The translations under genes and the position numbers were made by a program. The notes under the pieces are model-generated. The model had not been told where the DNA came from and ran no database searches. It was given only the letters and a program-made list of their open reading frames with translations. From positions 1-31,073 of IMG/VR virus record IMGVR_UViG_3300005805_000306: 31,073 nucleotides of DNA; one strand, given 5' to 3'. Positions 13,288 through 30,670 of the stretch are shown here, one piece after another. Each line of letters begins with the position of its first letter. Position 1 is the stretch's first letter. This DNA is from a virus. Lineage: Duplodnaviria > Caudoviricetes.

Positions 13288-13294
13288 AAAGAAT

Positions 13295-14194: not shown

Positions 14195-14197
14195 ATC

Positions 14198-14235: not shown

Positions 14236-14266
14236 AAATCAAGTACGGAAACCCCTAAGGATTCAC

Positions 14267-15019: not shown

Positions 15020-15029
15020 GCCCTGACAG

Positions 15030-15056
15030 CTAAGTTGTTGATTTTCAACAGGTTAG
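15030..15056. repeat. Imperfect palindrome / IHF-like site upstream of early promoter
   Basis: CTAA-gt-TGTTGA-ttt-TCAACA-gg-TTAG; left half recurs at 16062-16077, right half at 17744-17758. Confidence 0.65.
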
Positions 15057-15073
15057 AATTTTCTCAGACCAGA

Positions 15074-15111
15074 TTGACCCAGGTCAGACCATTTGCTATA
15101 CTATAAGAGTA
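15074..15111 (+). promoter_or_regulatory. Early promoter
   Basis: TTGACC-17-TATACT preceded by TTTGC and followed by ATAAGAGTA. Confidence 0.8.
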
Positions 15112-15435: not shown

Positions 15436-15443
15436 GAGACGGT

Positions 15444-16067: not shown

Positions 16068-16094
16068 GTTGTTGATTCTGCTGGAAATAAAAAT

Positions 16095-16134
16095 TTGACA
16101 CCGTTTGGTCAGAATTGCTATACTAAAAGAGTAA
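16095..16134 (+). promoter_or_regulatory. Early promoter
   Basis: TTGACA-18-TATACT-AAAAGAGTAAAGGACAAC. Confidence 0.8.
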
Positions 16135-16145
16135 AGGACAACACG

Positions 16146-16376
16146 ATGAACAACTCCAACGAACTTTGCGATTTTTTGACCCAGCCCCAGGTGGAAGAGC
16201 AGTACGATGCTGAATACGACGCCTGGCTCCAGGAACTGAGCGCTGAACTGGACCGGATCGAAGCTGAGTTTGAGCTGGCTGATGACGCTCCGGGCATGCT
16301 GGAAGCGTACCCGGAATTGTGGGCTCGGATCAGCGACGTAGTGGGTTGCGACACCGAGGAAGAAACTTTGTCTTAG
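16146..16376 (+). CDS. Highly acidic 76-aa early protein (candidate DNA mimic)
   Basis: 22 D/E versus 2 R and no K; SD aagga. Confidence 0.75.
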   Translation: MNNSNELCDFLTQPQVEEQYDAEYDAWLQELSAELDRIEAEFELADDAPGMLEAYPELWARISDVVGCDTEEETLS

Positions 16377-16379
16377 TGG

Positions 16380-16408
16380 TTGACATGGGCAGGCGGGTTT
16401 GCTAGACT
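16380..16408 (+). promoter_or_regulatory. Early promoter
   Basis: TTGACA-17-TAGACT with TTTGC. Confidence 0.75.
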
Positions 16409-16448
16409 AAGAGAGTAGTAGAAAACACAACACACAACAGGAGAATTT

Positions 16449-17549
16449 ATGAGCAAGACCATTGAATCGCGTACTGTGACCATTGCCGAGGCCCGCAGCC
16501 GGGTGATGCGTTGTTTGAATGCCCGCCGCCCGGTGTTCCTGTGGGGGCCTCCCGGAGTTGGCAAGAGCGAACTGGTGGGCCAGATCGCCAGCGACTTGGG
16601 TGGCGTGATGCTGGACTTCCGGCTGGCTATCCGGCAGCCCACTGACATCATTGGCATCCCCTACTTCAACAAGGACAAGGGCGTGATGGATTGGGCGCCG
16701 CCGGTGGATCTGCCCAGCGCCGAGTTTGCTGCCAAGTATCCGGTTGTGGTGCTGTTCCTGGACGAAATGAACTCGGCTGCGCCGGCCGTGCAGGCTGCGG
16801 CGTATCAGCTGGTGCTGGATCGCCGGGTTGGCCAGTATGTTCTGCCCGACAACGTGGTGATCGTGGCTGCTGGCAACCGCGAGACTGACAAGGGCGTTAC
16901 GTTCCGTATGCCCACTCCGCTGGCCAACCGCTTCGTCCACCTGGAAGTTCGCGTGGACTTCGAGACCTGGTTCAACTGGGCTGTGGATCACAACATCCAC
17001 AAGGACATCGTGGGCTACCTGCAGTTCCGCAAGAACGACCTGTTCGACTTCGACAGCAAGAGCGCCAGCCGCTCGTTTGCTACGCCGCGTAGCTGGAAGT
17101 TCCTGAGCGACCTCCTGGAAGACGACACCATGAGCGCTGCTGAGCTCAGCGACCTGGCTGCTGGCACGGTGGGCGAAGGCATTGCGGTGCAGTTCATGGC
17201 CCACCGTAAGTATTCCGAAGACCTGCCCAACCCCAGTGAAATCCTGGACGGCAAGGTCAAGGATCTCAAGACCAAGGAGATGAGCGCCAAGTATTCGCTG
17301 GTGATTTCCATGTGCTACGAGCTCCAGGAGGCTCACAAGAAGAACGTGGGCGAGAAGCGGTTCCACGAGATGGCTGACAACTTCTTCGACTTCATGATGA
17401 AGAACTTCGAGACTGAGCTCACTGTGATGGGTGCCCGTGTGGCGCTGGTGAATTATAAGCTGCCCTTCCATCCCAGCAAGCTCAAGACGTTCGAAGAATT
17501 CCACCGCCGGTATGGTAAATATATCATCGCGGTGGGTCAGACCAAGTAG
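16449..17549 (+). CDS. MoxR-family AAA+ ATPase
   Basis: GPPGVGKS, LFLDEMN, IVAAGN, PLANRF, FATPRSW; SD aggag. Confidence 0.92.
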   Translation: MSKTIESRTVTIAEARSRVMRCLNARRPVFLWGPPGVGKSELVGQIASDLGGVMLDFRLAIRQPTDIIGIPYFNKDKGVMDWAPPVDLPSAEFAAKYPVVVLFLDEMNSAAPAVQAAAYQLVLDRRVGQYVLPDNVVIVAAGNRETDKGVTFRMPTPLANRFVHLEVRVDFETWFNWAVDHNIHKDIVGYLQFRKNDLFDFDSKSASRSFATPRSWKFLSDLLEDDTMSAAELSDLAAGTVGEGIAVQFMAHRKYSEDLPNPSEILDGKVKDLKTKEMSAKYSLVISMCYELQEAHKKNVGEKRFHEMADNFFDFMMKNFETELTVMGARVALVNYKLPFHPSKLKTFEEFHRRYGKYIIAVGQTK

Positions 17550-17580
17550 TTCTCTCAGGGTGTTGTGACCCTGCTACACG

Positions 17581-17618
17581 ATGCGGGCTTGGGCAACCAA
17601 GCCCGCATTCGTCTGTTT
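17581..17618 (+). terminator. Stem-loop, probable intrinsic terminator
   Basis: ATGCGGGCTTGG-GCAA-CCAAGCCCGCAT followed by a weak T tract. Confidence 0.7.
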
Positions 17619-17785
17619 ACCTTGCTCTGTCGTGCCCTAGAACAGCCTGACCAGTGCCAGGACATGTCTGAGTATACCCCAGCCTCTCCAGGCTGTTCTA
17701 GGGCATTCTGCGGTGTTGAAAACAAAAGGGTTAGACTCCTGTGTTTTCAACAGGTTAGCAATTGAAATTATTTTTGCTGATTTGG

Positions 17786-17824
17786 TTGACTCACTGCCAA
17801 CCATTTGCTATAATAAAAGAGTAA
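17786..17824 (+). promoter_or_regulatory. Early promoter
   Basis: TTGACT-17-TATAAT-AAAAGAGTAAAGGACAAC (near-identical to the 16116-16143 element). Confidence 0.85.
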
Positions 17825-17832
17825 AGGACAAC

Positions 17833-18333
17833 ATGACTACTGGCGCAACCCTTACCCCGGATGAGTTCAAGAAGCTGAACAATGCCCTGTGTGGTATCCG
17901 TTACACCCAACGACAGCTTCAGAGTGTATTGAATCCTGAGCTGCTCAAGAGCCTGAATGACAGCATCGAAAGCATAGAGCAGGCGCTGGCCAATTCCTAT
18001 CAGAGAGAAAGTCAGTTGTTCGATGCCCGCTCCCGCTACTACCATCAGGTAGCTGAACAGGAAGGTTTTGATTCGAACTGGAGCATTTACACGGTGGGCT
18101 CCATGTTCGAAAATCACCCCTATGAGGGCGTCAAGGAACTGGTGTACAAGACTGTGACCTCGCACCTGAACTGGACCGAGGTTGAGATTCGTGTGCCAGT
18201 TGAAGGCTGCCGTTGGCTTGACTTGTGGCGGGCGGCTGACGCTGCGATCCGGCAGAGCGGAGACCGTCATCACATCTTCATTGAAGGGTTCCAGCAGGAC
18301 CTGGAAATAGTGACCTTGGTCACTGGCAGCTAG
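17833..18333 (+). CDS. Hypothetical early protein
   Basis: Start MTTGATL after SD aagga; C-terminal WLDLWRAADAAIRQSGDRHHIFIEGF. Confidence 0.8.
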   Translation: MTTGATLTPDEFKKLNNALCGIRYTQRQLQSVLNPELLKSLNDSIESIEQALANSYQRESQLFDARSRYYHQVAEQEGFDSNWSIYTVGSMFENHPYEGVKELVYKTVTSHLNWTEVEIRVPVEGCRWLDLWRAADAAIRQSGDRHHIFIEGFQQDLEIVTLVTGS

Positions 18334-18334
18334 G

Positions 18335-18363
18335 TTGACACCCGCTGACCCGTTTGCTACAAT
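18335..18363 (+). promoter_or_regulatory. Early promoter
   Basis: TTGACA-17-TACAAT with CGTTTGC. Confidence 0.8.
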
Positions 18364-18377
18364 AATAGAGAGGACAC

Positions 18378-19664
18378 ATGAGCAACACTACCAAACCCAA
18401 GAAGAATTCTCGCAAGGCTCAGTTTGAGCTCAACTGTACTGACCAGCCCATCCCCAAGGACCTCAGCAATCGGGTTCGTGAAAAGTTGGTAACGGCCCGG
18501 ATTTCGTTGCTGCTCAAGAAACCGTTCTTTGGCAACATTGCCACCCGGTTGGTGCTGACGCCTGCAGACGAGTGGTGCCCCACTGCTGCTACCGATGGGC
18601 GCAAGTTCTACTATAATCATGCGTTCATTGACGCCTTGCGCACTCGCGAAGTGGAGTTCCTGTTTGGCCACGAAGTGCTGCATTGTGTATACGATCACAT
18701 GGAACGCCGGGGCGACCGTGACCCCCAGCTGCACAACATTGCTGCTGACTACGTGGTGAACCTGGAACTGGTGGACCAGAAGGTTGGCGAGCTGATTACC
18801 ACTGTGCCGGCGCTGTATGACCGCAAGTATGTGAATTGGAGTTCAGAGCAGGTGTACGATGACCTGTTCAAGAATGCCAAGAAGATCAACATCCAGGATC
18901 TGCTGGACCAGCTGCTGGATGATCACATGGACGGCAGCGAGGGCGAGGGTGACGGCGATGGTGATAGCAAAGAAGGACCGAAAGGTCGCCCGGGTCGTCC
19001 CAAGCTGAGCGAAGAAGAAAAGAAGGCCATCCGGGACGAGATCCGCGAAGCGGTGCTCAACGCTGCCAAGCAGTGCCAGGCTGGCGACTTGCCTGCAGGT
19101 GTTCAGCGCCTGATCAAGGACCTCACTGAGCCCAAGCTGAACTGGCGTGAGCTGCTCCGGCAGCGTATCGAAAGCACGGTGCTCAGCGATTACAGTTGGC
19201 TGGTGCCCAGCCGCAAGGGCTGGGACATGGATGCGGTGCTGCCGGGCATGATCGTGGATCAGCAGATTGACATCTGTGCGGCACTGGATATGAGCGGCTC
19301 CATTGGCGAGGCTGAAGCTCGTGACTTCCTGAGCGAGATCCAGGGCATCATGAGCCAGTTTGACGGTTACAAGATCCAGGTGTGGTGCTTCGACACCCAG
19401 GTTTACAGCCACGACACGTTTACCAACGATGACGGCCGCAGCATTGATGAATACAAGATCAAGGGCGGTGGCGGTACTAGCTTTGACGTGAACTGGGAAT
19501 GGATGAAAGAGAACAACATCGAACCCAAGTTGTTTGTTATGTTCACTGACATGTACACTGGAGACGGCTTTGGTGACCCCAACTACTGCGACACTATCTT
19601 CGTGTCGCATGGCGGGGCTGACATTGTGGCCCCGCACGGGCTGACTGTGAAGTACGAGAAGTAG
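18378..19664 (+). CDS. Metallopeptidase + VWA domain protein (DUF2201-like MoxR partner)
   Basis: TAATDG, HEVLH, NIAADYVVN; MIDAS DMSGS, GGGGTSF, FTD. Confidence 0.9.
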   Translation: MSNTTKPKKNSRKAQFELNCTDQPIPKDLSNRVREKLVTARISLLLKKPFFGNIATRLVLTPADEWCPTAATDGRKFYYNHAFIDALRTREVEFLFGHEVLHCVYDHMERRGDRDPQLHNIAADYVVNLELVDQKVGELITTVPALYDRKYVNWSSEQVYDDLFKNAKKINIQDLLDQLLDDHMDGSEGEGDGDGDSKEGPKGRPGRPKLSEEEKKAIRDEIREAVLNAAKQCQAGDLPAGVQRLIKDLTEPKLNWRELLRQRIESTVLSDYSWLVPSRKGWDMDAVLPGMIVDQQIDICAALDMSGSIGEAEARDFLSEIQGIMSQFDGYKIQVWCFDTQVYSHDTFTNDDGRSIDEYKIKGGGGTSFDVNWEWMKENNIEPKLFVMFTDMYTGDGFGDPNYCDTIFVSHGGADIVAPHGLTVKYEK

Positions 19665-19676
19665 ATTTCAAACTCA

Positions 19677-19703
19677 GCGGGAGGGAAACCTCCCGCATTT
19701 TTC
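19677..19703 (+). terminator. Intrinsic terminator
   Basis: GCGGGAGG-GAAA-CCTCCCGC-ATTTTT. Confidence 0.85.
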
Positions 19704-19704
19704 T

Positions 19705-19989
19705 ATGCAAAATGATCATCTAAAACAAATATGTCAGCACCCCAGAATAGTGGAGCGACTGCCCAGGCACTTCCAGGGTCTGGAGTTGCCCATGCAGGTG
19801 CCTGTTGACAATGCTGTAGCAGTGGCTCAGAGCATCATCAGAGACATTCTGGCTTCTACCCAGGGCCGTATTTTTGTGGATCTGAATCAGGAGCAGAATT
19901 ATGACTTGTACGTGGCGTTTGAAGAACCTGGCGATCTGGTCTACGTGACCTTGGCTTTGCCTGCGCTATTGTCTGAAAAAATTCGCTAG
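19705..19989 (+). CDS. Hypothetical protein (C-terminus resembles paralog-family motif)
   Basis: YVAFEEPGDLVYVTLAL. Confidence 0.75.
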   Translation: MQNDHLKQICQHPRIVERLPRHFQGLELPMQVPVDNAVAVAQSIIRDILASTQGRIFVDLNQEQNYDLYVAFEEPGDLVYVTLALPALLSEKIR

Positions 19990-20002
19990 GGCAGAAGTGC
20001 CG

Positions 20003-20009
20003 ATAAATA
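20003..20009 (+). promoter_or_regulatory. Putative late promoter ATAAATA
   Basis: Intergenic, before SD aaggag of the gene at 20029. Confidence 0.6.
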
Positions 20010-20028
20010 CTGATATCAAGGAGACAGT

Positions 20029-20292
20029 ATGGAAAATACTCAACCAACATTGGATCTAAATGATCTGAATATTTTGCGTGAAGTGGTGTCCCAATGTGCT
20101 ACTCGCGGAGCATTTAAAGCCGAAGAGTTCAGCGCCATTGGGCGTGTTTATGAAAGGCTAGTGGCTTTTCTGGAAGCGTCAAACGCTTTGGCTGCCACAG
20201 AGGAAGCCGATTCTGCTGATCAGCCTGCCCAGACTGACGAGCCGGTCAGCGAGGAAGTGCCGGTCCAGACTGAAGCTGCTGAAGGAATCTAA
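20029..20292 (+). CDS. Hypothetical phage protein
   Basis: LDLNDL...RGAFKAEEFSAIGRVYERL core with acidic tail. Confidence 0.85.
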   Translation: MENTQPTLDLNDLNILREVVSQCATRGAFKAEEFSAIGRVYERLVAFLEASNALAATEEADSADQPAQTDEPVSEEVPVQTEAAEGI

Positions 20293-20294
20293 CC

Positions 20295-20939
20295 ATGATC
20301 AAACATGTAGGTCGCCATGGCGACAAGAAGATTGTGATTTTGTATCGCACCGTACCTGGTGAAGATCATATGTGCTTGGTTGCCTACAGCGACCTGCTGC
20401 CCAGAACTTATCACGATGCAGTGATGAAGACTCTGGAAACTCCTGCTGGCCAGCAGGCCAAGGAATTTGCAGATGCACTGTTCCGCAACCTGTTGCCAGA
20501 TGGTCGTAACATCCTGCATACTCTGCATCGCGAAGGGTTGATCAAGAAGGTACCAACCAATCAGGTGATTGTCACGCCAGACACCAAGAGCAATGTCAGA
20601 CTGGACGAACTCAACGACATTCTGAAGAAGATGGAAGAAGGCGAGGATGCTGTGCGCAAGATGGCAGCCATGGATGCTCAGGCTGGGCTCAGAGATCCCA
20701 TCAAGAACCGCAAGATGGTGACTCCAGCTGAGCAGACTGCGGCTGTGCTGGATGATAGCAACCTGGCACAGAATCTGATGGCTCAGGCTACTCGCATGAA
20801 AGCCGAAGCTCAGAGCTTGCTGACCGAAGCAGCCAGATTGGAAACCGAAGCTCAGACACTGACCGCAGTCACTCCCAAGACTCCTGCTAAGAAAGGTCGC
20901 GGCAGAAACAGTGCGAAAAAGTCAGCTGTTGCAGAGTAA
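20295..20939 (+). CDS. Hypothetical phage protein (coiled coil, basic tail)
   Basis: 214 aa, SD aagga. Confidence 0.85.
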   Translation: MIKHVGRHGDKKIVILYRTVPGEDHMCLVAYSDLLPRTYHDAVMKTLETPAGQQAKEFADALFRNLLPDGRNILHTLHREGLIKKVPTNQVIVTPDTKSNVRLDELNDILKKMEEGEDAVRKMAAMDAQAGLRDPIKNRKMVTPAEQTAAVLDDSNLAQNLMAQATRMKAEAQSLLTEAARLETEAQTLTAVTPKTPAKKGRGRNSAKKSAVAE

Positions 20940-21219
20940 AGAACCAGTGGGTACTGATTGGGAAAAGCTCATAGACGAAATTGACAAGAAGATCATACCC
21001 ACTTTCCTGATTCGAGAAGTACATTTTATATATCCAGACTGTCCTGATGTGGTAATGGGGCTGGATCAACTGGATTCAGACACTCTGGAACTACTAGGAG
21101 CCTCTATTCGTGAACTCCGTGAAGATTCAGATGCTCGTATACGTTTAGTCATTGACGTCAATAAACTTCAAGCACACATTGAACCCTTTGTGGATCAAGT
21201 GTTGCAATCCTTACCTTGA
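20911..21219 (+). CDS. Hypothetical protein
   Basis: 102 aa, GTG start; exact start uncertain. Confidence 0.7.
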   Translation: MRKSQLLQSKEPVGTDWEKLIDEIDKKIIPTFLIREVHFIYPDCPDVVMGLDQLDSDTLELLGASIRELREDSDARIRLVIDVNKLQAHIEPFVDQVLQSLP

Positions 21220-21758
21220 TGAAATACAATAAACCAAATATCAACGTTTGTGCTATTTTTGCAACTGATCAAGATGGTGGTATGGGGTACCAGGGCCGAA
21301 TGCCCTGGCCCCATCTGTCTGATGATTTAAAAAATTTTCGACGTCTCACGCTGGGATGTCATGTGCTCATGGGCAGCAAAACCTGGACCAGCACTGACAT
21401 GAAAGCGCCGTTGCCCTTGCGTGGCAACATTGTGTGGAGTCGGAATCACAGTGTGCTGCCCAACATCACTGACAAAGTCATACAGTTTACAGGGGATCCA
21501 AAAGTTTGTCTGGAGATCTTTTCAGATCGGGAACCCCTTGCCAGTCAGATCTGGGTTATAGGCGGAGCAGAGACTCTGAAAACCTGGATGCCCTTTGTAA
21601 ACACTGTGTGGCATACTGAAATCCATCGACGTTGGGAGTGTGATACTCGCTACCATAATTCATATTGGCAATCTGAGTTTACACCTGAACCCAATCCCAG
21701 TAAATATCGTGATTATGATACAGGTATCGAGTACACCATCACTGTGTGGAATCGCTAA
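21219..21758 (+). CDS. folA: Dihydrofolate reductase
   Basis: GMGYQGRMPW, DLKNFRRLT, VLMGSKTW, PLPLRGNIV, WVIGGA, CDT. Confidence 0.92.
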   Translation: MKYNKPNINVCAIFATDQDGGMGYQGRMPWPHLSDDLKNFRRLTLGCHVLMGSKTWTSTDMKAPLPLRGNIVWSRNHSVLPNITDKVIQFTGDPKVCLEIFSDREPLASQIWVIGGAETLKTWMPFVNTVWHTEIHRRWECDTRYHNSYWQSEFTPEPNPSKYRDYDTGIEYTITVWNR

Positions 21759-21759
21759 T

Positions 21760-22602
21760 ATGGAACAACAATATCTAGATACACTGAAGAAAATATTAGA
21801 TACCGGAATCGATACTGATGACCGTACTGGAGTGGGCAGCCGTAGCATTTTTGGTGTGCAGATGCGGCATGATCTCAACGCGGGGTTTCCTGCATTAACC
21901 ACCAAGAAGCTAGCTTGGCAAGCTGTGGTAGGAGAGCTGTTGTGGTTTATTGAAGGCAGCAGCGATATTCACCGTCTGAGTGAACTAACACACGGAGTGC
22001 CTGATCGCAACACCATCTGGCATGCTAATGCTCTGGCTCCCAGCTGGTTGCCCAACGCTAAATTTGAAGGAGATGCTGGTTCTATCTATGGAGTACAGTG
22101 GCGTCGTTGGGTAGGCGACCATGGTGCAGAGATTGATCAGTTGGCTCAGTTGATTCTGGATATCAAGCAGAATCCCCACAGTCGCAGACACATTCTCACA
22201 GCATGGCAACCTGCCGAGTTAGATCAAATGTGTTTGCCACCCTGTCATATTCTGAGCCAGTTCTGGGTCAGACAAGGACGATTGAGCTGCCAGCTGTACC
22301 AGAGATCGGCCGATTTCCCCCTGGGAATCCCATTCAATATTGCCAGCTACAGTCTGCTCACTCACATGATTGCACAGGTATGCGGGCTGGGTGTAGGAGA
22401 GTTTGTGCATGTGATCGGAGACGCTCACATCTATCACAATCAATTTGATGGTGTTCGAGAGCAACTGACTCGCACTGGTTATGATTTTCCCACACTGTGG
22501 ATCAATCCAGATGTAACCAGTATATTTGATTTCAAACCACAGGATTTCAAACTGATTGGATACAAACATCATCCGGCCATCCAGTTTCCGTTCGCGACCT
22601 GA
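21760..22602 (+). CDS. thyA: Thymidylate synthase
   Basis: DDRTGVG, TTKKL, ELLWF, YGVQWR, LPPCH, YQRSAD..LGIPFNIASY, GDAHIY. Confidence 0.96.
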   Translation: MEQQYLDTLKKILDTGIDTDDRTGVGSRSIFGVQMRHDLNAGFPALTTKKLAWQAVVGELLWFIEGSSDIHRLSELTHGVPDRNTIWHANALAPSWLPNAKFEGDAGSIYGVQWRRWVGDHGAEIDQLAQLILDIKQNPHSRRHILTAWQPAELDQMCLPPCHILSQFWVRQGRLSCQLYQRSADFPLGIPFNIASYSLLTHMIAQVCGLGVGEFVHVIGDAHIYHNQFDGVREQLTRTGYDFPTLWINPDVTSIFDFKPQDFKLIGYKHHPAIQFPFAT

Positions 22603-22639
22603 TACCAGAGGAGGTCCTATGATAAATAGTTGTGAAACC

Positions 22640-22918
22640 ATGTGCTTGGAAGACTCTGCTGGTAGTACCAGATGGATCAGGATAGTGGAGTTTGATAACA
22701 ATTTATTTGCTATAGAAAGCACTGATTATGCTATACTGGAAAGAGGGTATTCAATGAAGTTCAGCGATCACGCTGAACTGTCCAACTGGATGCATCATCA
22801 GATATCATCTGGTTGGGCGGTAAGTTTCAGTACTCATCAGCCCAGTGACAACATAGATACCGACATCATTGGCCGTATTCAGTTAAATGTGTTTAACGCA
22901 TTGGCCAAAAATAAATAA
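22640..22918 (+). CDS. Hypothetical protein
   Basis: ATG 22640 after ATAAATA 22622-28 (alternative start 22619). Confidence 0.6.
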   Translation: MCLEDSAGSTRWIRIVEFDNNLFAIESTDYAILERGYSMKFSDHAELSNWMHHQISSGWAVSFSTHQPSDNIDTDIIGRIQLNVFNALAKNK

Positions 22919-22940
22919 ACAACAACAACAAGGAGAAATC

Positions 22941-24005
22941 ATGCGATTTTTATCAATTATGCTTTTGGGATTGGGTAGTTTGTTTGGCCAGACCAATCCT
23001 TTTCCCACTTTGGCACCAGCCAGTGCCACAGTGACTTATGACAAGGCTGTGGACACTGTGGTGTCTTTGCCTGGGGTGACCCTGACTGCTGGCACTAACC
23101 CGTTTTTCTACAGTGTGTTTGTGCCGGTAGAGTATTCTGCGGTGGTCACCTATGCACCCATGGTGGGCTTTCTGCCACCTGGTACCACTGGCGAAGTGCG
23201 CATGGCTGTGAATGCTCAGAGCCTGAATGTGGGTACCTACAACATTCCTGTCAGCTTTGTGCAGAACAGTCCCAATGTGATTGTGGGCTTTGGTATCACA
23301 CTGAATGTGACCGACAGTCGCACCTATGTGCTGCCTGGCGCTACTGACCGACAGATTCCTCACATTGCTGCTGGTGACAACTGGAAGACCCGAGTTCGTT
23401 TGGTGAATACTAGCTCTGCAACCAGCGTGAGTGAATTGCGTTTTTACAATGCTGCTGGTCAGAGTGAGAACTTTGCAGTGAACGGGTTCTTGACCAACTA
23501 TCTGCCGGGTGTAGCAATTCCTGCCCGAGGTTTTGTGGACCTGGTGTTGGATAATCCTGCTGGTCTCAAAACAGGCACTGCCACTGTGAAGCCCCTGATT
23601 GGCGACGTACCTGGCATCAACGTGATCTATCAGAGTGCTGCTCCAGCCTTTGAAAGCGCCGTGGAAGTCAAGCAACCCAATCGGTCCACGATGACCATTG
23701 CGTTCAACAACGTGGGTCGTAACAGCACTGGTATCGCGATCAGCAATGCACTGAACTTCAACCAGGAACTGACTTTTGAGTTCTTTGATGAACAGGGTCA
23801 GAACCTGATTCCCACCGGCACCACAGTGAACAAGGTCCGAGTTCCCCAGAACGGCCAGTACATTGCCACCATGAACACCGTTTGGCCGTTCACTGCTGGC
23901 AAGACTGGTACAGTTCGAATCACTGGAACCCAGCCTGCACTGTATGGATTTGGTTTGCAGTTTGACCTGGACAAGGGCGTGTTCTACACTCAACCAGTGT
24001 TCTAA
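22941..24005 (+). CDS. Secreted beta-rich protein (signal peptide, Ig/BACON-like plus Acidobacteriota-type PHxAxGxxWxT domain)
   Basis: SD aggag; MRFLSIMLLGLGSLFGQ signal; LNVGTY; IPHIAAGDNWKTRVRLVN; STGIAISN. Confidence 0.75.
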   Translation: MRFLSIMLLGLGSLFGQTNPFPTLAPASATVTYDKAVDTVVSLPGVTLTAGTNPFFYSVFVPVEYSAVVTYAPMVGFLPPGTTGEVRMAVNAQSLNVGTYNIPVSFVQNSPNVIVGFGITLNVTDSRTYVLPGATDRQIPHIAAGDNWKTRVRLVNTSSATSVSELRFYNAAGQSENFAVNGFLTNYLPGVAIPARGFVDLVLDNPAGLKTGTATVKPLIGDVPGINVIYQSAAPAFESAVEVKQPNRSTMTIAFNNVGRNSTGIAISNALNFNQELTFEFFDEQGQNLIPTGTTVNKVRVPQNGQYIATMNTVWPFTAGKTGTVRITGTQPALYGFGLQFDLDKGVFYTQPVF

Positions 24006-24027
24006 ACTCCTGCTGATCCTCAACCCT

Positions 24028-24053
24028 AACGGGGGCCCTAGGGCCCCCGTTTT
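24028..24053 (+). terminator. Intrinsic terminator
   Basis: AACGGGGGCCC-TA-GGGCCCCCGTT-TT. Confidence 0.85.
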
Positions 24054-24060
24054 CTGTCAT

Positions 24061-24089
24061 TTGACTTTGACATCATCGTTTGCTATACT
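24061..24089 (+). promoter_or_regulatory. Early promoter
   Basis: TTGACT-17-TATACT with CGTTTGC, followed by ATAGGAGTA. Confidence 0.8.
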
Positions 24090-24105
24090 ATAGGAGTACA
24101 AGGTC

Positions 24106-25269
24106 ATGGAACTGAACATACAGAAGTTGTTGCGTAACGATCCTGCTGCACTGGACCAGATCCAGAACATGGGCATTCAGGTCAATACTCATCCCCGATT
24201 CCCCAACCTCAAGCAGTTTGTCTACAGCATGATCGAGTCCTATGAATTCAAGGATCACCCGATCGTGTGCGAGTCCCGTGGTCTGCTGCTGAACAGTGAC
24301 GACAACTGGAACGTGGTTGCGCATCCGTTCAATCGTTTCTTCAATTTGGGCGAGCCGGGTGCTGCGGAGATCGACTGGAGCACTGCTCGAGTCCAGGAAA
24401 AGCTGGACGGTTCCCTGATGGTGATGTACTATTGGGCTGGCGCATGGCACGTGAACACTCGCAAGACGCCGGGTGCTGGTTCGCCCGTGGGCGATTGGGG
24501 CATCAACTTTGCCGACTTGTTCTGGCGCTGCTGGGATCAGCAGTACGGCGATGCTGGGTTTGATCATTTGATTCCGGGTTTTACCTACTGCTGGGAATTG
24601 ACCAGCCCCTTGAATCGCGTGGTTACCCACAATCGAGATGAGCGAATTACCTTGCTGGCGGTTCGTGATGCACAGGGCCAGGAACAGGCTGTTCAGCAGT
24701 ATCAGAACGCCTTTGATGTGGTTCGCCACTTTAAATTTGGTTCGGCTGAAGCTGCGGCGCAGGCTGCTGAGCTGCTGGATCCCATGGATCAGGAAGGCTT
24801 TGTGGTGGTGGACGCTGATTTTCAGCGTGTCAAGATCAAGAGCTCGCACTATGTGGCTATCCACCACACTGTGACCAGCTTGAACACCAGAGCCATTGTG
24901 GAGCTGATCCAGAAGGGTGAAGCTGATGAGGTAATGACTTACTTTCCCGAGATCCAGCGTGAATTCAATCGTATTGCGGGTCACATCAATCACGAAGCTG
25001 CGGAAGTTGACCGTTGGTTTGAGTTCTTGCAGCCCTGGGCTCAGCAGGTGATCCGCAATGGCGATCGTACTGCTGAATCCATCAGCCGCAAGCCGTTTTC
25101 GGCTGCTGTGGTTCAGAACGTTCCCAATCGGTATCATGCTGCAATGTTTGCTTTGGTCAAGCAGCAGGCTGGTTCGGGTCGCGAATGGCTTTTGAAGCAG
25201 GACCTGGAAACCATCATGCGCTGGATGAACTTCAAGAGCGTGAAAAATTTCCAGAAGGAGGCAGAATGA
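24106..25269 (+). CDS. rnlA: T4 Rnl1-like RNA ligase
   Basis: ESRGLL, PFNRFFNLGE, motif I EKLDGSL, WELTSP, EGFVV, RVKIKS. Confidence 0.92.
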   Translation: MELNIQKLLRNDPAALDQIQNMGIQVNTHPRFPNLKQFVYSMIESYEFKDHPIVCESRGLLLNSDDNWNVVAHPFNRFFNLGEPGAAEIDWSTARVQEKLDGSLMVMYYWAGAWHVNTRKTPGAGSPVGDWGINFADLFWRCWDQQYGDAGFDHLIPGFTYCWELTSPLNRVVTHNRDERITLLAVRDAQGQEQAVQQYQNAFDVVRHFKFGSAEAAAQAAELLDPMDQEGFVVVDADFQRVKIKSSHYVAIHHTVTSLNTRAIVELIQKGEADEVMTYFPEIQREFNRIAGHINHEAAEVDRWFEFLQPWAQQVIRNGDRTAESISRKPFSAAVVQNVPNRYHAAMFALVKQQAGSGREWLLKQDLETIMRWMNFKSVKNFQKEAE

Positions 25270-25475
25270 TCATCCCCAATCGACTCCCTGGAGTCAGTAT
25301 GCGGCAATATTGGGTCCAGGTACTGGAACAGTATGGAGCTTGGCAGGAACAAGACACTTGGTGTGTTCCTGCTTTTCCGCAAGGCAAAGAATTTTATTCC
25401 AGAACCCAGGACGTCTACTCAGCGTATGTAATGGCGTTGAATGGCGTCAATCTCAAAACTAAAAATCAAGGATAA
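25266..25475 (+). CDS. Hypothetical protein
   Basis: ATGA overlap, SD aaggagg. Confidence 0.65.
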   Translation: MIIPNRLPGVSMRQYWVQVLEQYGAWQEQDTWCVPAFPQGKEFYSRTQDVYSAYVMALNGVNLKTKNQG

Positions 25476-25477
25476 AC

Positions 25478-25825
25478 ATGCACAGCATCTGGTCTTTTCT
25501 GTTGGCATTATGTCTCACTGACACTGGTGAGATACGAGGTCGGGTTGTGAATTGTCGCAATCGCACTGTGTCCAAATTGGAGGTGTGCTACCAGACCTAT
25601 ACTGGCAATGGTATTGCACAGGCCGAAACGATGTGTACCAAGACCAACTCACAGGGTGAATTTGTTTTTGATCAGCTGGCACCAGGCACATATGGTGTCT
25701 TTATAAGCAGTGATCGTTGGCGCACCGTCAGATACCGAGATATCAAAATAGAGTCTGACAAGTCTGTGGACTTGTTTTTCAAACTGACTCCTGCGCCCAA
25801 TCAGGAATCCTGGTGTAGCCAATGA
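25478..25825 (+). CDS. Carboxypeptidase-regulatory-like (prealbumin-like) domain secreted protein
   Basis: Signal-like N-terminus; GEIRGRV, TNSQGEFVFDQLAPGTY. Confidence 0.8.
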   Translation: MHSIWSFLLALCLTDTGEIRGRVVNCRNRTVSKLEVCYQTYTGNGIAQAETMCTKTNSQGEFVFDQLAPGTYGVFISSDRWRTVRYRDIKIESDKSVDLFFKLTPAPNQESWCSQ

Positions 25826-26073
25826 AGGAAAAACATTATCCAGCCCCCACCAAAAACGAACGCATCCGTTACATGGAGGCTTTGTTACATCAGTTGAATG
25901 CCGCTCGCACCGCTGGCAATGTTGAATTCATAAGCCGGCTGCTGAATCGCATTGATGATTGGAGCTACGCACATCGCGTGGGCAATGGCGCACTCACTGA
26001 TCGTCAGCAACAGCAACTGATTCACAAAGCCTTCTGGAATAAAATTGCCGGTATTGATTATGGTGAAATGTAA
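25822..26073 (+). CDS. Hypothetical protein
   Basis: ATGA overlap; 83 aa. Confidence 0.7.
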   Translation: MKEKHYPAPTKNERIRYMEALLHQLNAARTAGNVEFISRLLNRIDDWSYAHRVGNGALTDRQQQQLIHKAFWNKIAGIDYGEM

Positions 26074-26145
26074 CAATACCGTTGTGGTAATGTAATAATT
26101 CTGTAAACCTAAAAACAGTAAGTAAACATGAGGAAAAATCAACCA

Positions 26146-29100
26146 ATGAGAACTATTTTTTTGATTTTGTTTTGTGCATCCAGCCTGTGGTCACAAACCG
26201 ATGCTGGTGCTATCTTGGGATCCATCCAGGATAGTGACCGGGCTGTGATCACAGGCGCCACGGTGTCTGTGCAAAACGAAAAGACCGGCCAGATGCGTGA
26301 AACAGTCAGCAATGAAACTGGCCTATACACCATCCCCAATCTCAGCGCCGCTAATTATACCATCAAAATTTCGGCACCTGGCTTTGCCAGTATGCAAAAG
26401 AGTGGTATCCGGCTGAATGTGGGTCAACAGATTGCTGTGAACTTTGTGATGGTACCACAAATTGTGCGTACTGAAGTGGTAGTAGAAGGTGGCGATGTGG
26501 TTGCCGTGGATACTGCCAGTGCCAAAATGGGCGTGAACGTCAGCGAGCGTGAAGTGGCCAACTTGCCACTGAACGGCCGTCAGCTTAGTCAGTTGTATCT
26601 GCTGGCTCCAGGTGCCAACACTGGCGGTGGTGGCAGCTATGACAACATTCGTTTTAGTGGTCGCAGCAATCAGCAGAATGCCATTCGTTATGATGGTGTG
26701 GAGGGAAGCAGCATTGTGGATGCCAGTCCGGGCAATCTGAACGGACAGATCAGCAGCTTCTTCCGTCTGCAAAGCAGCATGGAGAATGTGCAGGAATTCC
26801 GTGTGGAAAGCAACAACTATCCTGCAGAATACGGCACCGGCACAGGCGGTCAGATCACTGTGGTCACCAAGAGCGGTGGCAATCAGTTGCATGGCAGTGT
26901 GTTTGAATACATGCGCAACAGTGCCCTGGATGCTCGCAACTTCTTCGATGGTGCCAGTGTAAATCCGCTGAGACTGAATCAGTTTGGTGCCAGTGCTGGT
27001 GGCGCCATTGTGAAGGATCGTTGGTTTTGGTTTACGAGCAATGAGAATCTGCGCCAGCGACAGAGTATTCCGTTCCGCGAAGCTGTGCCCAGTATCAGTG
27101 CTCGAGCTCGTGCTGTACCAGCAGTGCAGCCATTATTGAGTTTGTTCCCCCAAGGCAACATTCCAACTGCTGATCCCAATGCCACTATTTTAGCAGTGGA
27201 TCGATCACAGATTGTGGATGAAGTTAGCTTTGGTTCACGTATTGACGGCAGAATCAACGATCGTTTGGCAGTTTATGCTCGTTATTTCCGTGACCAGGGC
27301 CACAGTGTTCAGCCCTTGGGCGTGACCGGCAACAGCATCGATGTCACTGCTGTTCCGCAGAATGCAGTGTTCAACACTCAGTGGATCATCAGTCCGCAGA
27401 AGATCAACGAAGCCAAGCTGGGCATCAATGCTTATAAGACTCGTGCCTGGGGTCGTGCTCCTGTAGTAAATGGTTTCAATCCTGCAGACATCAGCGTGAA
27501 TCTCACTGGTGGTGTTGCACTGGCTGGTATCAGCAGTCAGGGTGCAGGCACTGGGTTCAGCACCGCAGGCGGCTTGGTTCGCAGCAACAGCGCCACCAAC
27601 GGACGTGGCCAGCCTTACACCAACACCAGCACTGCACTGATTGATAACTTCAGCTGGATTCAGAACAATCACAACATCAAGATTGGTGGGGAATTGCGCT
27701 GGATTCGTCTGTATACTGATCGGCTGGGCGGTACCACTTACAGCTTCAGCAATGTGGAAGATCTGATCAACAACCGTCCGCTTCAGGTTCAGTTCCTGGG
27801 CGATCTCAGTGCGCCCAGTCCATTCAACAAAAACGCCATCGGCGAACGTGAACTCAATCAATACTTCGCCATTGGTTATGTGCAGGACGAATGGAAACTG
27901 CGTGAAAACATCACTGTGAACTATGGCCTGCGTTATGAGTATTACAGTGTATTCAGAGAAAAGCGTAACCTGGCTGTGAATTGGAATCCTGTGACTGGCC
28001 AGTTGTTAGATCCTGCACTACCAGTTTATCAGAGTGACCGTACCAACTTCAGTCCCAGATTCAGTACCACATGGAGCCCGTTTCGGTGGCAAGGCAAAAC
28101 TGTATTTCGTGTGGGCTCGGGGATTTATTACGGTCCGGGTCAGCCGGAAGATCTGATTCAGCCGTTTGAAAGCGACCGGATCAGCAGCACGCTGACTGGT
28201 GTGACCTATCCAGTCAATACCGCTCAGATTGCAGCCAACTACAACATCAACAGTCCCACTCTGCGATTCCAGCCACGTGCTTATGATCCTGGTTATCGTG
28301 TTCCTGAGAAAGTCTACAGTTACACTGCCAGTGTTCAGCAGCAGGTTCGGGGCAATACCGTTACCCTAGCTTATGTGGGCAGCCTGGGTCGCAACCTGTT
28401 CATCCGCACCTGGGGCAATCGCATAGTGGGTGTGAATACCAACCCAGTCACTGGTGCAGCCATAGTGGCTCGCGAGTTTGGAGACCGGTGGGCCGAAGTT
28501 GACGTCAAGACCAGCGGCGGCAATGACCACTACAATGCTCTGCAGGCCACAGCTAACCGCAAGACTCGCAGCGGCTTCAATTATGGTGTGAGCTATACTT
28601 GGGGACGTTCGATTGGCAGCAGCGGTGGTTCCAATGAAACTGTCACGGTGGCTGACAGCTACAACTGGCGGCGTGACTATGGCAACAATGCTGCTGACAT
28701 TCGTCACAATCTCAACACTGTGATGCTGTACGAAGGCAGCAAAGGTCGGCTGAACAATTGGCAGTTTGGCGGCATCCTGAACACTCGTTCGGGTCTGCCA
28801 CTGGATCCACTGATTGTGCGCAATGACGTAATTTATCGAGATCAGCGTAATGGTTTATACTACAATAACCCTGTGGTAGAAAACGGAGTGGTTCACACTC
28901 GCGCTGAAATTAACGTACCCGGAGGCGGTCAGACCAGACAGATTCGTCGTCCGGATTACGTGGCAGGTGTCAGCCCTTATGTTAAGAGCAACGGCACATT
29001 GTACCTGAATAGTGCTGCGTTTAGCACTCCACTGCCAGGTACATTTGGCAACGCATCCCGATACAGTCTGCGGGGCCCAGCTCTTTTCCAAACCGACATC

Positions 29101-29379
29101 ACGGTTCAACGCCGAATCCGACTCAGTGAACAGTTTAACCTGATTGTTCGTGCTGAATTTTACAACGTGTTCAACCGTGCAAACTTTGCTAACCCGCCTG
29201 CTCAGTTACCCAACGCTCTGCCCAGCAGACCTGGTCAGAGCAATACTGTGCAGCCCGGGCAAGCATTTGGTCCCAGCACTCAGGGTGCAGCATTTGGTGT
29301 GATTAACAGCACACTGGATCGCACAGTGGGTCTGGGCACCAGTCGACAGATTCAGTTGAGTTTGCGACTGAATTTTTAG
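26146..29379 (+). CDS. TonB-dependent outer-membrane transporter, Oar/Acidobacteriota type (N-terminal carboxypeptidase-regulatory domain, plug, barrel)
   Basis: Signal peptide, ILGSIQD...GLYTIPNL, LPLNGR, VQEFRV...AEYG...VTKSGGN, NQFGASAGG, YVQDEWK...NYGLRYE, NFSPR, RAEFYNVFN, terminal RQIQLSLRLNF (alternative start 26128). Confidence 0.93.
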   Translation: MRTIFLILFCASSLWSQTDAGAILGSIQDSDRAVITGATVSVQNEKTGQMRETVSNETGLYTIPNLSAANYTIKISAPGFASMQKSGIRLNVGQQIAVNFVMVPQIVRTEVVVEGGDVVAVDTASAKMGVNVSEREVANLPLNGRQLSQLYLLAPGANTGGGGSYDNIRFSGRSNQQNAIRYDGVEGSSIVDASPGNLNGQISSFFRLQSSMENVQEFRVESNNYPAEYGTGTGGQITVVTKSGGNQLHGSVFEYMRNSALDARNFFDGASVNPLRLNQFGASAGGAIVKDRWFWFTSNENLRQRQSIPFREAVPSISARARAVPAVQPLLSLFPQGNIPTADPNATILAVDRSQIVDEVSFGSRIDGRINDRLAVYARYFRDQGHSVQPLGVTGNSIDVTAVPQNAVFNTQWIISPQKINEAKLGINAYKTRAWGRAPVVNGFNPADISVNLTGGVALAGISSQGAGTGFSTAGGLVRSNSATNGRGQPYTNTSTALIDNFSWIQNNHNIKIGGELRWIRLYTDRLGGTTYSFSNVEDLINNRPLQVQFLGDLSAPSPFNKNAIGERELNQYFAIGYVQDEWKLRENITVNYGLRYEYYSVFREKRNLAVNWNPVTGQLLDPALPVYQSDRTNFSPRFSTTWSPFRWQGKTVFRVGSGIYYGPGQPEDLIQPFESDRISSTLTGVTYPVNTAQIAANYNINSPTLRFQPRAYDPGYRVPEKVYSYTASVQQQVRGNTVTLAYVGSLGRNLFIRTWGNRIVGVNTNPVTGAAIVAREFGDRWAEVDVKTSGGNDHYNALQATANRKTRSGFNYGVSYTWGRSIGSSGGSNETVTVADSYNWRRDYGNNAADIRHNLNTVMLYEGSKGRLNNWQFGGILNTRSGLPLDPLIVRNDVIYRDQRNGLYYNNPVVENGVVHTRAEINVPGGGQTRQIRRPDYVAGVSPYVKSNGTLYLNSAAFSTPLPGTFGNASRYSLRGPALFQTDITVQRRIRLSEQFNLIVRAEFYNVFNRANFANPPAQLPNALPSRPGQSNTVQPGQAFGPSTQGAAFGVINSTLDRTVGLGTSRQIQLSLRLNF

Positions 29380-29428
29380 TGGTGTATAATAATTGGGCTA
29401 CCTGAACTAAATAGTCTGGGTAGCCCAA
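29362..29428 (+). promoter_or_regulatory. Sigma70-like promoter followed by a hairpin enclosing a TAAATA motif
   Basis: TTGCGA-17-TATAAT; TTGGGCTACC 29393-402 / GGTAGCCCAA 29419-28 flank CTAAATA. Confidence 0.55.
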
Positions 29429-29453
29429 ACAGCTTCCCAAAGGAGTAAAATCA

Positions 29454-29915
29454 ATGACAATTCTGATACTCCTGGTAACGGCAATTCTGATCGTACTGTA
29501 CAGAAGAACGGAGAAAACCATGATCGACATCAAAGGTCTTATCGCAAAAGTAGATGCTCTAACTGCAATTGTTCCCAACATCAAGGCAGATTATGAGAGT
29601 TTGAGTGCAACTGTGGCTGAACTACAGGCCAAAGTTGCCAGCATGGAAGGAGTGGATCCTGAACTGCAAGCTCTGATCGACAGTCTGGATGCCAAGCTGG
29701 GTTCCAGCCTGGAAACACTCAAGGCTCTGGATGAAAGCGTTCCTGGCGCTGCGCCAGCAGCACCAGCAGCACCAGCTGAACCTGCTCCTGCTGAGCCTGT
29801 GATTGAAGAATCGCCTGCACCTGTTGAGCCCGAACCTGCTGTGGAAGAAACACCTGCTGCTCCTGTTGAAGAAGTGGTAGCAGAACCAGCTGCTGAAGAA
29901 AAGCCAGCTGAATAA
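29454..29915 (+). CDS. N-terminal TM + coiled coil + Pro/Ala/Glu-rich tail protein (second possible start 29520)
   Basis: SD aaggag before 29454 and ggag before 29520; PAAPAAPAEPAPAEP low-complexity tail. Confidence 0.8.
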   Translation: MTILILLVTAILIVLYRRTEKTMIDIKGLIAKVDALTAIVPNIKADYESLSATVAELQAKVASMEGVDPELQALIDSLDAKLGSSLETLKALDESVPGAAPAAPAAPAEPAPAEPVIEESPAPVEPEPAVEETPAAPVEEVVAEPAAEEKPAE

Positions 29916-29920
29916 CCATC

Positions 29921-29951
29921 AGATGGGCGGAGGATGACTTCCGCCCATCTT
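29921..29951 (+). terminator. Stem-loop, probable terminator
   Basis: AGATGGGCGGAG...TTCCGCCCATCT. Confidence 0.7.
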
Positions 29952-29961
29952 ATCATACAAG

Positions 29962-29999
29962 TTGAAACATCAGCTAAATACTGTTATAATAAAAGAGTA
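29962..29999 (+). promoter_or_regulatory. Early promoter with nested TAAATA late motif
   Basis: TTGAAA-17-TATAAT-AAAAGAGTA; CTAAATA in the spacer. Confidence 0.75.
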
Positions 30000-30173
30000 A
30001 TGGAACAGCACAAAAGAACTGTAGCCAGATCAGCCAGTTGGAGAATTACTGCAACCATAATTACTGCATTATGGACTGGCATCGAATCGGCAATTTGGAT
30101 GAATCTAATCATGACAGTGGTGCATTATCTACACGAAAGGATTTGGCTCAAGCTAGAATGGGGTAAATCTTAA
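30000..30173 (+). CDS. DUF2061-like small membrane protein
   Basis: HKRTVARSASWRITAT...HYLHERIW..LEWG. Confidence 0.8.
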   Translation: MEQHKRTVARSASWRITATIITALWTGIESAIWMNLIMTVVHYLHERIWLKLEWGKS

Positions 30174-30182
30174 TCTACAAGT

Positions 30183-30535
30183 TTGATAGGTGATGATCTA
30201 GACTGAAGGCATCGTGGACCTGGGTTCGACTCCCAGCGCCTCCACCAAAAGCACGTGGGTTCGATCCCCACCGTTCAAGGACACCCGAAAGGGACAATGG
30301 ACACTTGCGATGACTAGGGTCGTGTGCTTTTGAAGGGGGCGAAATGGTTTCGACAGGATGAGCTAGGAACGGGGAATCTATCCGGCAGACGACTACCGCA
30401 ACAGCGTGAACTTATAAATGCCAATTCTAACGAATGGTACAATCTCGGTGAATACAGCTTCGAAACCGAAGCTGGGCTAGCAGTAGCCTAACCGAATGAG
30501 TTAGATAAGCCCTCGGAAACAGAATGCTTATCACA
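30183..30535 (+). ncRNA. ssrA: Circularly permuted (two-piece) tmRNA
   Basis: Acceptor piece first: GGAC-CTGGG-TTCGACT-CCCAG-CGCCTCC-A-CCA ending at 30247. Coding piece starts GGGGGCG-AAATGGTTTCGAC at 30335. The 7-bp acceptor stem has G3.U70. Helix-2 pairings: AGGATG/CATCGT, CTAG/CTAG, TCTATC/GATAGG. Resume context ATAAAT-GCC. Outer ends are approximate. Confidence 0.92.
30420..30491 (+). other. tmRNA tag reading frame ANSNEWYNLGEYSFETEAGLAVA*
   Basis: GCC AAT TCT AAC ... CTA GCA GTA GCC TAA; terminal hairpin GGCTA-GCAG-TAGCC. Confidence 0.85.
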
Positions 30536-30536
30536 G

Positions 30537-30560
30537 AAAAGCCGCGCAAGCGGCTTTTTT
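30537..30560. terminator. Bidirectional intrinsic terminator
   Basis: AAAA-GCCGC-GCAA-GCGGC-TTTTTT between convergent units. Confidence 0.85.
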
Positions 30561-30670
30561 ATTATCTGAATAAGTAAGAAGAATTAGTTTTGCACTTATT
30601 TCTCCAACAATAGGGGACCCCTCAGTGGGTCAATGTTACCTTTTTGTACCCAATTTGACGATGACAAATT

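Follow-up and report, generated by a model that had tools for sequence, protein, structure and literature searches.

The virus record IMGVR_UViG_3300005805_000306 (Duplodnaviria; Caudoviricetes) comprises 31,073 bases, all of which we analyzed and which we call the window, and near its right end it carries a gene for a TonB-dependent transporter (TBDT) set among phage genes. An initial annotation, made from the sequence alone, had described this gene as an intact TBDT of ~1080 amino acids (aa) with a signal peptide, a plug, a barrel and a C-terminal Phe, and Pfam searches, a structural model and Foldseek comparisons bear that description out.

An intact transporter gene in a phage genome

The longer open reading frame (ORF) at this position, 26128-29379 on the + strand, encodes 1083 aa from an alternative ATG at 26128, and when 70 relatives are aligned with it they start at its Met7, which places the start of the gene at 26146 (Table 1). 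The N-terminus is hydrophobic and, by inspection of the alignment, ends in A/S-Q before TD in 9/9 rows of the phage clade described below and in 5/5 rows of its cellular-looking sister group. The Pfam domain OMP_b-brl_4 (PF25183) spans aa 327-1076 (E 1.2e-130) and the protein closes with ...LRLNF, its last residue being Phe; the Pfam Plug match is weak (E 0.0015; 19.5 bits, below the cut-off of 23.9) but runs over positions 21-104 of the 107-position profile. An AlphaFold2 model built from 71 sequences (predicted local distance difference test score (pLDDT) 76.5, predicted template modeling score (pTM) 0.71) runs from an N-terminal helix through a beta-sandwich, a disordered linker (residues 111-134, pLDDT below 50) and a plug to a barrel in which 22 strands can be counted. 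The TEVVVEG of this linker, which we take to resemble the TonB-box consensus, is kept as [KR]TE[IV][IV][VI][ED]GG in 9/9 phage-clade rows.

Searching the PDB with Foldseek returned 216 matches at E <= 0.001, and the 47 listed are all TBDTs, led by FusA (4zgv, E 6.8e-24), with alignments of ~1000 columns that take in the plug. FusA, YddB (6ofr), PfeA and the SusC-like proteins 5fq6 and 6z9a share the plug-in-barrel fold with the phage protein at a Foldseek probability of 1.00, whereas sequence identity to solved TBDTs is ~10%; SusC-like proteins also have an N-terminal CarboxypepD_reg domain, as the phage TBDT does. NCBIfam holds no equivalog for it. None of the full-length copies examined has a stop or frameshift. 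The phage gene is intact and has the architecture of a TBDT, with barrel, plug, signal peptide and C-terminal aromatic residue all present.

Table 1. Coordinates of the transporter gene, its parts and nearby features in the window
Feature	Position	Strand	Basis or remark
TBDT gene	26146..29379	+	1077 aa from Met7; ORF, Pfam PF13620 + PF25183, AlphaFold2 model, Foldseek
Pho-box-like direct repeat ATGTAATAATT CTGTAAACCTA	26090..26111	+	56 nucleotides (nt) before TBDT ATG; predicted function
Shine-Dalgarno-like GAGGA	26130..26134	+	11 nt before ATG 26146; conserved in L007, L002
Signal peptide MRTIFLILFCASSLWSQ	26146..26196	+	By inspection; model helix 5-20
CarboxypepD_reg beta-sandwich	26212..26451, aa 29-108	+	PF13620 E 7e-19; model strands 27-108
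TonB-box-like motif TEVVVEG	26467..26487, aa 114-120	+	In disordered linker
Plug domain	26530..26877, aa about 135-250	+	Weak Pfam Plug match, conservation, fold
22-strand beta-barrel, 11 extracellular loops, terminal Phe	26878..29376	+	PF25183; model strand list
Downstream gene, 153 aa	29454..29915	+	N-terminal membrane anchor, coiled coil, acidic Pro/Ala/Glu-rich tail
Strong hairpin, 11 pairs	29921..29950		Scan and sequence
Sigma-70-like promoter copies	13257-13289, 14205-14237, 15072-15104, 16378-16410, 17784-17816, 18333-18365, 24059-24091		Repeat families D1/D2, 7 copies each
Promoter copy nearest upstream of TBDT	24059..24091	+	Precedes RNA ligase gene
Related promoter copy	29962-30012		Before tmRNA
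Permuted transfer-messenger RNA (tmRNA)	30185-30491 (ARAGORN 30155-30582)	+	RF04321, 104.7 bits vs gathering score 47

The setting of the gene is that of a large phage. PHROG families are matched by 24 of the 58 candidate ORFs of the window, with functions that include QueD/QueE, an exonuclease, a primase, HNH and homing endonucleases, a polynucleotide kinase, DHFR, thymidylate synthase and an RNA ligase. On longer relatives, the right flank continues with a homing endonuclease, a 2OG-Fe(II) oxygenase, a match to phrog_11259 (E 1.6e-69), two collagen-repeat tail-fibre proteins and the very long virion-protein frame described below. Completeness is estimated at 9% for the window and at 9-14% for contigs of 31-50 kb, which suggests a phage genome of ~350 kb; proteins of the 85% cluster were found on contigs of up to 243,876 bp, another measuring 206,534 bp, and for one neighbouring gene the nearest deposited phages are the jumbo phages PA5oct (46.6%), Phosso and Atu_ph07. 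At least 72% of sampled words of the stretch are present in 14 DNA runs from eight studies, which are mostly labelled freshwater, lake or aquatic.

That phage genes flank the TBDT, as the initial annotation had it, holds in at least four sequence variants of independent assemblies. Window 16354-30538 is collinear with the IMG/VR contigs L001 and L002 through the TBDT and both flanks, at a DNA identity of 78% in the TBDT and 65-83% in its neighbours, and syntenic metagenome copies with the same gene order are 99-100% (L006, L009, L013), 91% (L007, L008) or 85% (L002) identical. Contigs from independent runs bridge both borders of the gene (X5 at 25007-27501 and 29194-30007; X2 at 29343-30019). 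Together, the collinear copies and bridging contigs rule out a chimeric assembly at the gene borders.

Selection, exchange and origin of the transporter

By the Nei-Gojobori method, the TBDT has the lowest ratio of nonsynonymous to synonymous divergence (dN/dS) of eight syntenic genes, 0.07 between the window and L007 and 0.09 between the window and L002, with 0.10-0.24 for the others. Its dS (0.69 and 1.19) lies within the range of its neighbours, so the TBDT has diverged along with the phage backbone under strong constraint. Base composition follows the phage: the GC of the TBDT and of the rest of the locus is 51.6 and 48.1%, 53.6 and 51.6%, 49.4 and 44.6%, and 33.8 and 32.0% in four phages, with 14% GC at third codon positions (GC3) in the last, and cellular copies have a GC of 55-64% and a GC3 of 62-87%. 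The gene is maintained by selection in the phage lineage, and its composition is adapted to each phage. One could still suppose that it is not a phage gene at all, being host DNA beside a prophage, a chimera or a decaying passenger, given that the TBDT matches no PHROG family and that the window ORFs directly to its right match PHROGs weakly or not at all. This idea is already refuted by the fixed position of the gene, flanked left and right by phage genes, in the independently assembled variants, by the bridging of both borders in contigs of other runs and by the low dN/dS, phage-following GC and uninterrupted frames of the full-length copies.

Conservation within the protein is uneven. The plug is the most conserved part (mean identity 93% inside the phage clade, 89% against the cellular sister), and conservation is no lower in extracellular loops than in strands (65% and 58%, phage vs sister). 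Median loop lengths differ by at most one residue from the sister clade, and loop L11 differs by three from more distant relatives. Most diverged from the sister are the N-terminal domain (37% identity) and the TonB-box linker (39%). This pattern, as judged from alignments, fits a working transporter rather than a decoy or a remodelled receptor.

The gene has a history of its own among phages. An alignment-based scan of IMG/VR found the TBDT in eight loci, six of which belong to two T4-like lineages (B and C) of ~175-185 kb by completeness estimate, where it sits between Hsp20/thioredoxin and a GH19 lysin, a T4-type DNA polymerase and UvsX. Between the T4-like contigs L170 and L172, the TBDT is 96.7% identical, as against 44.7% for the DNA polymerase and 30% for UvsX, which points to a recent exchange of a polymerase-adjoining cassette with the TBDT between divergent T4-like phages. 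In the same comparison (L170 and L172, 7944-12582), the GH19 lysin is 81% and a 216-218-aa protein 65% identical. The TBDT family is present in at least three phage backbones and occurs widely in freshwater metagenomes.

In a set of 5.8 billion clustered proteins, relatives of the phage TBDT fall in steps of 100%, 85-88%, 70-73%, and 62-63% and below. The nearest cellular relatives stand at 62-63% (P0011-P0015), one of which, P0014, carries the source name 'TonB-dependent receptor [Bryobacteraceae bacterium]' and is assigned there to a Bryobacteraceae metagenome-assembled genome. Of the loci found in species-representative genomes, 78/80 are labelled Acidobacteriota, the best at 58% (Terriglobia) and the following ones at 54, 53 and 51% (Bryobacteraceae). 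In trees computed with FastTree (86 rows) and IQ-TREE (42 rows), all five rows of known phage context (the window, L007, L002, L012/L172 and L170) form one clade with six rows of unseen context, with a support of 100 in the Shimodaira-Hasegawa-like approximate likelihood-ratio test (SH-aLRT) and a stem of 0.31-0.36. This clade is nested within TBDTs of Bryobacteraceae, Bryobacterales and Terriglobia, beside P0013 and P0014. In amino-acid composition, the five sister rows resemble high-GC genes of cells, a weak sign of a cellular source. Each of three acidobacterial genomes has 215-269 family matches, of which a single one reaches 54-59% identity while the next stands at 31-33%, so it is from one specific orthogroup that the phage gene descends. 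That orthogroup was found in at least 11 of 61 sampled genomes of the order, a lower bound since 12 candidates were scored per genome.

The homology and phylogeny that the initial annotation had proposed as a check thus place the closest cellular homologues in Bryobacteraceae and Terriglobia, and a capture from a Bryobacteraceae-like acidobacterium, long ago, appears likely from these comparisons. The uncharacterised chromosomal orthogroup has the same architecture, length and loop lengths as the phage copy, a plug that is 89% identical and an overall identity of 62-63% (P0011-P0015) or 49-59% (genome copies), and it likewise has a Pho-box-like repeat upstream. The phage copies differ from it in forming their own long-stemmed clade (0.36), in their phage-like GC, in their diverged N-terminal domain and TonB-box linker and in their phage neighbours.

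These results bear unequally on the two functions that the initial annotation had left side by side. An auxiliary nutrient-uptake gene is supported by a transporter that is intact, inherited with the phage and under the strongest purifying selection locally, with its plug, TonB-box-like motif and loop lengths kept. The other function, receptor remodelling or superinfection exclusion, would have the phage copy replace or mask a host TBDT receptor and thereby block rivals or protect progeny. TBDTs are common phage receptors, as is also stated in a study on phages of ammonia oxidisers (10.64898/2026.05.02.722434). The derivation from one specific orthogroup among so many family members per genome and the strong divergence of the N-terminal domain and linker would also suit such a role; however, the loops are conserved like strands, with lengths nearly unchanged and no shortening, conservation peaks in the plug and the TonB-box-like motif, on which transport depends and masking does not, and an extra receptor alone excludes nothing. 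To our knowledge, no known exclusion protein is a whole TBDT, and we regard receptor remodelling or exclusion as improbable here.

Proposed regulation and function

Phage-style regulatory elements, another feature of the initial annotation, are borne out by a sigma-70-like promoter (TTGAC, ~17 nt, TGCTATACT, then AAAGAGTAA) that occurs in seven copies directly before genes in the nucleotide-metabolism block and probably represents the early promoters of the phage. No copy lies directly before the TBDT. A unit that starts at the nearest upstream copy, before the RNA ligase gene, likely runs through the TBDT, which would then be co-transcribed, and likely ends at the hairpin behind the 153-aa downstream gene, a candidate terminator that has no T-run on the + strand. 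The TBDT may be read both from this early promoter and from a PhoB-dependent one of its own. Generic scans of the window were not above shuffled sequence, either for promoters (11 vs 7.7 +/- 2.8) or for terminators (7 vs 7.2 +/- 3.5). Contigs from RNA libraries match parts of the TBDT in five runs from four studies (X15, X16, X18, X19 and X20), some without any difference, and in two of those libraries the cover varies strongly from place to place along the stretch, an argument for RNA. Stretches without RNA-library cover (for example, 24080-24349, or 25400-26095 in X17-X20) were not used as evidence.

The suggestion of a PhoB-dependent promoter comes from a direct repeat shared with the cellular orthologues. 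All 12 evaluable cellular upstream regions (12/12) have CTGTAAC/CTGTCAT direct repeats with an 11-bp period, the arrangement of the classical Pho box, and in leave-one-out scoring the score of each region was reached by 0 to 10 of 200 shuffles. A matrix trained solely on these upstream regions finds its top match in the window, over both strands and ~62,100 positions, in the repeat just upstream of the phage TBDT, with a third repeat unit in register at 26068-26078. In L007 this site reaches a higher score (18.5, rank 1 of 20,454), and L006 has it unchanged. Applied to other genomes, the matrix scores at least 11.2 upstream of pstS in five of nine regions, the 99th percentile of the background being 10.5 (1048 windows).

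The neighbourhoods of the cellular orthologues give a second link to phosphate. A phosphate-related neighbour is present at 5 of 14 loci: one orthologue lies back to back with pstS-pstC-pstA-pstB-phoU, all above the NCBIfam curated cut-offs, followed by a PhoR-like kinase; two loci have a response regulator and a kinase adjoining the TBDT, with best matches to PhoB and PnpS/PhoR; a polyphosphate kinase accompanies one further orthologue and an acid-phosphatase-like gene another. Contexts are mixed, and sugar-acid and rhamnose genes and M20 peptidases occur as well.

On this basis we favour, with even confidence, a PhoB-controlled nutrient importer that serves phage replication in phosphate-starved infected cells. 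The TBDT would have been captured long ago from the phosphate-starvation regulon of a Bryobacteraceae-like acidobacterium; host PhoB would switch the phage gene on in phosphate-starved infected cells; the product would be exported and built into the host outer membrane; the host TonB system would power it; and the imported nutrient, possibly phosphorus-bearing, would feed phage replication. In this scenario the binding of PhoB, the time of expression, the export of the product and its assembly in the outer membrane, its reliance on host TonB, its cargo, the gain for the phage and the identity of the host are parts that we infer. A domain search found TonB_C in 0/5 phage records, all of them fragments, and transport energy from host TonB is assumed.

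Several results weigh against this reading. The site is degenerate in L002, with no score above 8.6 close to the start, and in the T4-like lineages B and C it is weak, 3-5% of background windows reaching its scores of 7.3-8.3. Binding of PhoB at the repeat is predicted from its motif, the sequences had already been viewed when the matrix seed was picked, and four of the nine pstS upstream regions gave no matrix score. Pho boxes called in silico in phage genomes are described as unreliable without binding assays in a study of a cyanophage (PMC10976474). At 9 of the 14 cellular loci a phosphate-related neighbour is absent, and the PhoB and PnpS/PhoR matches at the two loci named above fall below the equivalog cut-offs. 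The RNA-library contigs may include carried-over DNA and do not yield an expression level, and a sequence-profile search found no PDB relative of the transporter.

The same intact and selected transporter could instead be a general auxiliary importer, of a carbon source, iron or a cofactor, that acts during a long infection and has no tie to phosphate, the Pho-box-like repeat being a chance match or a relic. The majority of cellular loci without a phosphate-related neighbour, the sugar-acid, rhamnose and M20 peptidase contexts and the weakness of the motif in L002 and the T4-like lineages all lean this way, and so do the iron requirement of the nearby radical-SAM and 2OG-Fe(II) enzymes and the published reading of phage TBDTs as carbohydrate or iron/heme importers (10.1101/2021.07.26.453748; 10.64898/2026.05.02.722434). 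We nevertheless think a phosphate-independent importer less likely, because the best matrix match of the window lies exactly upstream of the TBDT and the site ranks first in L007, because one orthologue adjoins pstSCAB-phoU and because the same matrix scores upstream of pstS in five of the nine regions scanned.

A wider form of the PhoB-controlled reading can be put forward tentatively. In it, phages of hosts other than cyanobacteria would take over the phosphate-starvation switch of the host and so re-equip its outer membrane. A PhoB-wired TBDT family resident in phage genomes would pass in cassette form among jumbo and T4-like phages that are unrelated but have hosts in common, and starving infected cells would be made to scavenge phosphorus for viral DNA synthesis.

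A close parallel is the cyanophage pstS gene, which host PhoBR controls, and PhoB has been described to bind phage promoters (PMC10976474). As reported there, pstS and phoA are likewise nutrient-uptake genes of host origin, carried by T4-like phages behind a host Pho box and induced in phosphate-starved hosts. The gene described here differs in that its product is TonB-dependent and belongs to the outer membrane, whereas theirs is a periplasmic binding protein; its control by PhoB is predicted, and its host is not a cyanobacterium. If the prediction is true, the cyanophage pstS paradigm of host Pho control would take in a further phylum and a component of the outer membrane. For the function of phage-borne outer-membrane transporters, the TBDT family offers a clean test case, since it is intact, strongly selected and preceded at 56 nt by a candidate PhoB site.

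Whole TBDT genes in phages are already in print as presumed auxiliary genes. A gene annotated as 'Putative TonB-dependent receptor SusC' has been reported in the marine megaphage Mar_Mega_1 and in LR745206 (10.1101/2021.07.26.453748; PMC9723777), and six TBDTs in phages of ammonia oxidisers (10.64898/2026.05.02.722434). In the passages of these accounts considered here, the gene is likewise a whole TBDT in a phage genome, read as an auxiliary uptake gene, and, unlike the present work, they contain no analysis of selection, phylogeny or regulation. The TBDTs concerned belong to other subfamilies, and their phages to other host groups, than those considered here. A tblastn search of the phage TBDT against 50,697 deposited phage records gave a single match, 23% identical, and no close relative, and the papers on phage TBDTs that our searches returned contain no functional test of any of them. 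What our analysis adds is a strongly selected phage-only clade, its cassette-like exchange between unrelated backbones and a specific prediction, open to test, that the host phosphate regulon controls the gene.

Host signals and other features of the window

The initial annotation had also taken the TBDT as the best clue to the host. As a pointer to the origin of the gene this stands, given the Bryobacteraceae and Terriglobia homologues (78/80 loci), whereas as a call of the host it does not. An acidobacterial host is plausible but unproven: it is compatible with the gene origin, with canonical promoters and with moderate Shine-Dalgarno use (Shine-Dalgarno-like 4-mers before 20 of 56 candidate starts vs 7.0 +/- 2.5 at random positions), and a Bacteroidota host is mildly disfavoured by the same promoters and Shine-Dalgarno use. 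The case is weakened by an old capture (identity of 63% or less, composition fully phage-adapted) and by the movement of the gene between phages. Two comparisons lend such a host no support, and thus none to the acidobacterial side of the PhoB-controlled reading. A DNA comparison, bearing on the spacer check that the initial annotation had proposed, set window 1-20000 against 401 genomes of the order of genome G008 and found nothing near-identical or spacer-like, the best match being 71% over 209 nt, a weak gene-level similarity. Secondly, the acidobacterial tmRNA tags, ANNTQFAYAA and ANNDAQFAFAA, are unlike the tag of the phage tmRNA (ANSNEWYNLGEYSFETEAGLAVA, 23 residues, ending in LAVA) and its permuted form; the three genomes with the closest TBDT orthologues have a one-piece tmRNA (RF00023 above cut-off in 3/3, RF04321 in 0/3). 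The TBDT is hence a lead, not a proof, toward Acidobacteriota hosts of large freshwater phages, in a phylum with few known phages.

In the same genome comparison, 140 of the 401 genomes match window 1-20000 somewhere, mostly at 14465-14570, a conserved domain. This segment of ~100 nt, within the ORF at 14207-14665 (phrog_26927), is 70-76% identical in many of the genomes.

The tmRNA also occurs in L006, L008 and L013 with variant tags, and RNA-library contig depth is the highest of the stretch at this gene. In its intervening part, 87 nt (window 30248-30334) are replaced by 10 nt (TAAAACTTAT) in a strain variant seen in five runs. The variant appears in both DNA and RNA libraries (X2, X5, X15, X16 and X19), so it is a difference at the DNA level and not a product of processing.

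Around the TBDT, no adjoining gene for a SusD-like partner was seen. The 153-aa protein encoded directly downstream is 78% identical in L007 and L008, with no homologue found in L002, and has a periplasm-spanning look without a TonB C-terminal domain; its counterpart in L008 (3787-4368) has a tail expanded by repeats, giving 194 aa. The downstream genes P0123 and P0127 match no Pfam family. Two genes upstream of the TBDT, window 25478-25825 (+) encodes a stand-alone CarboxypepD_reg protein of 115 aa (P0122; Pfam E 2.1e-10) whose N-terminus is hydrophobic and lipobox-like. L002 carries a version at 56% identity, the ORFs of L007 include no homologue, and BLASTP gave no significant similarity to the N-terminal domain of the TBDT.

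Further from the gene, a very long frame emerges on related contigs, where L003 1-12600 with L002 21133-23244 (G002:C1:2-14665) gives an open frame of more than 4888 aa whose 5' end is open. It matches the virion structural family phrog_10938 (E 1.5e-178), phrog_701 and the baseplate wedge subunit phrog_708, and it is adjoined by a 1585-aa protein without a family match. Window 8160-10692 holds ~10 small ORFs (69-98 aa) of a tandemly duplicated family without a PHROG match, accompanied by repeated DNA blocks spaced 226-437 nt apart (families D4-D6, D8, D11, D13 and D20). At the left end, an ORF of 486 aa on the - strand (2-1459) runs off the record, contains DNA repeats with a 66-nt period (D3, D9) and matches phrog_5925 and phrog_17056 and, weakly, DUF4116.

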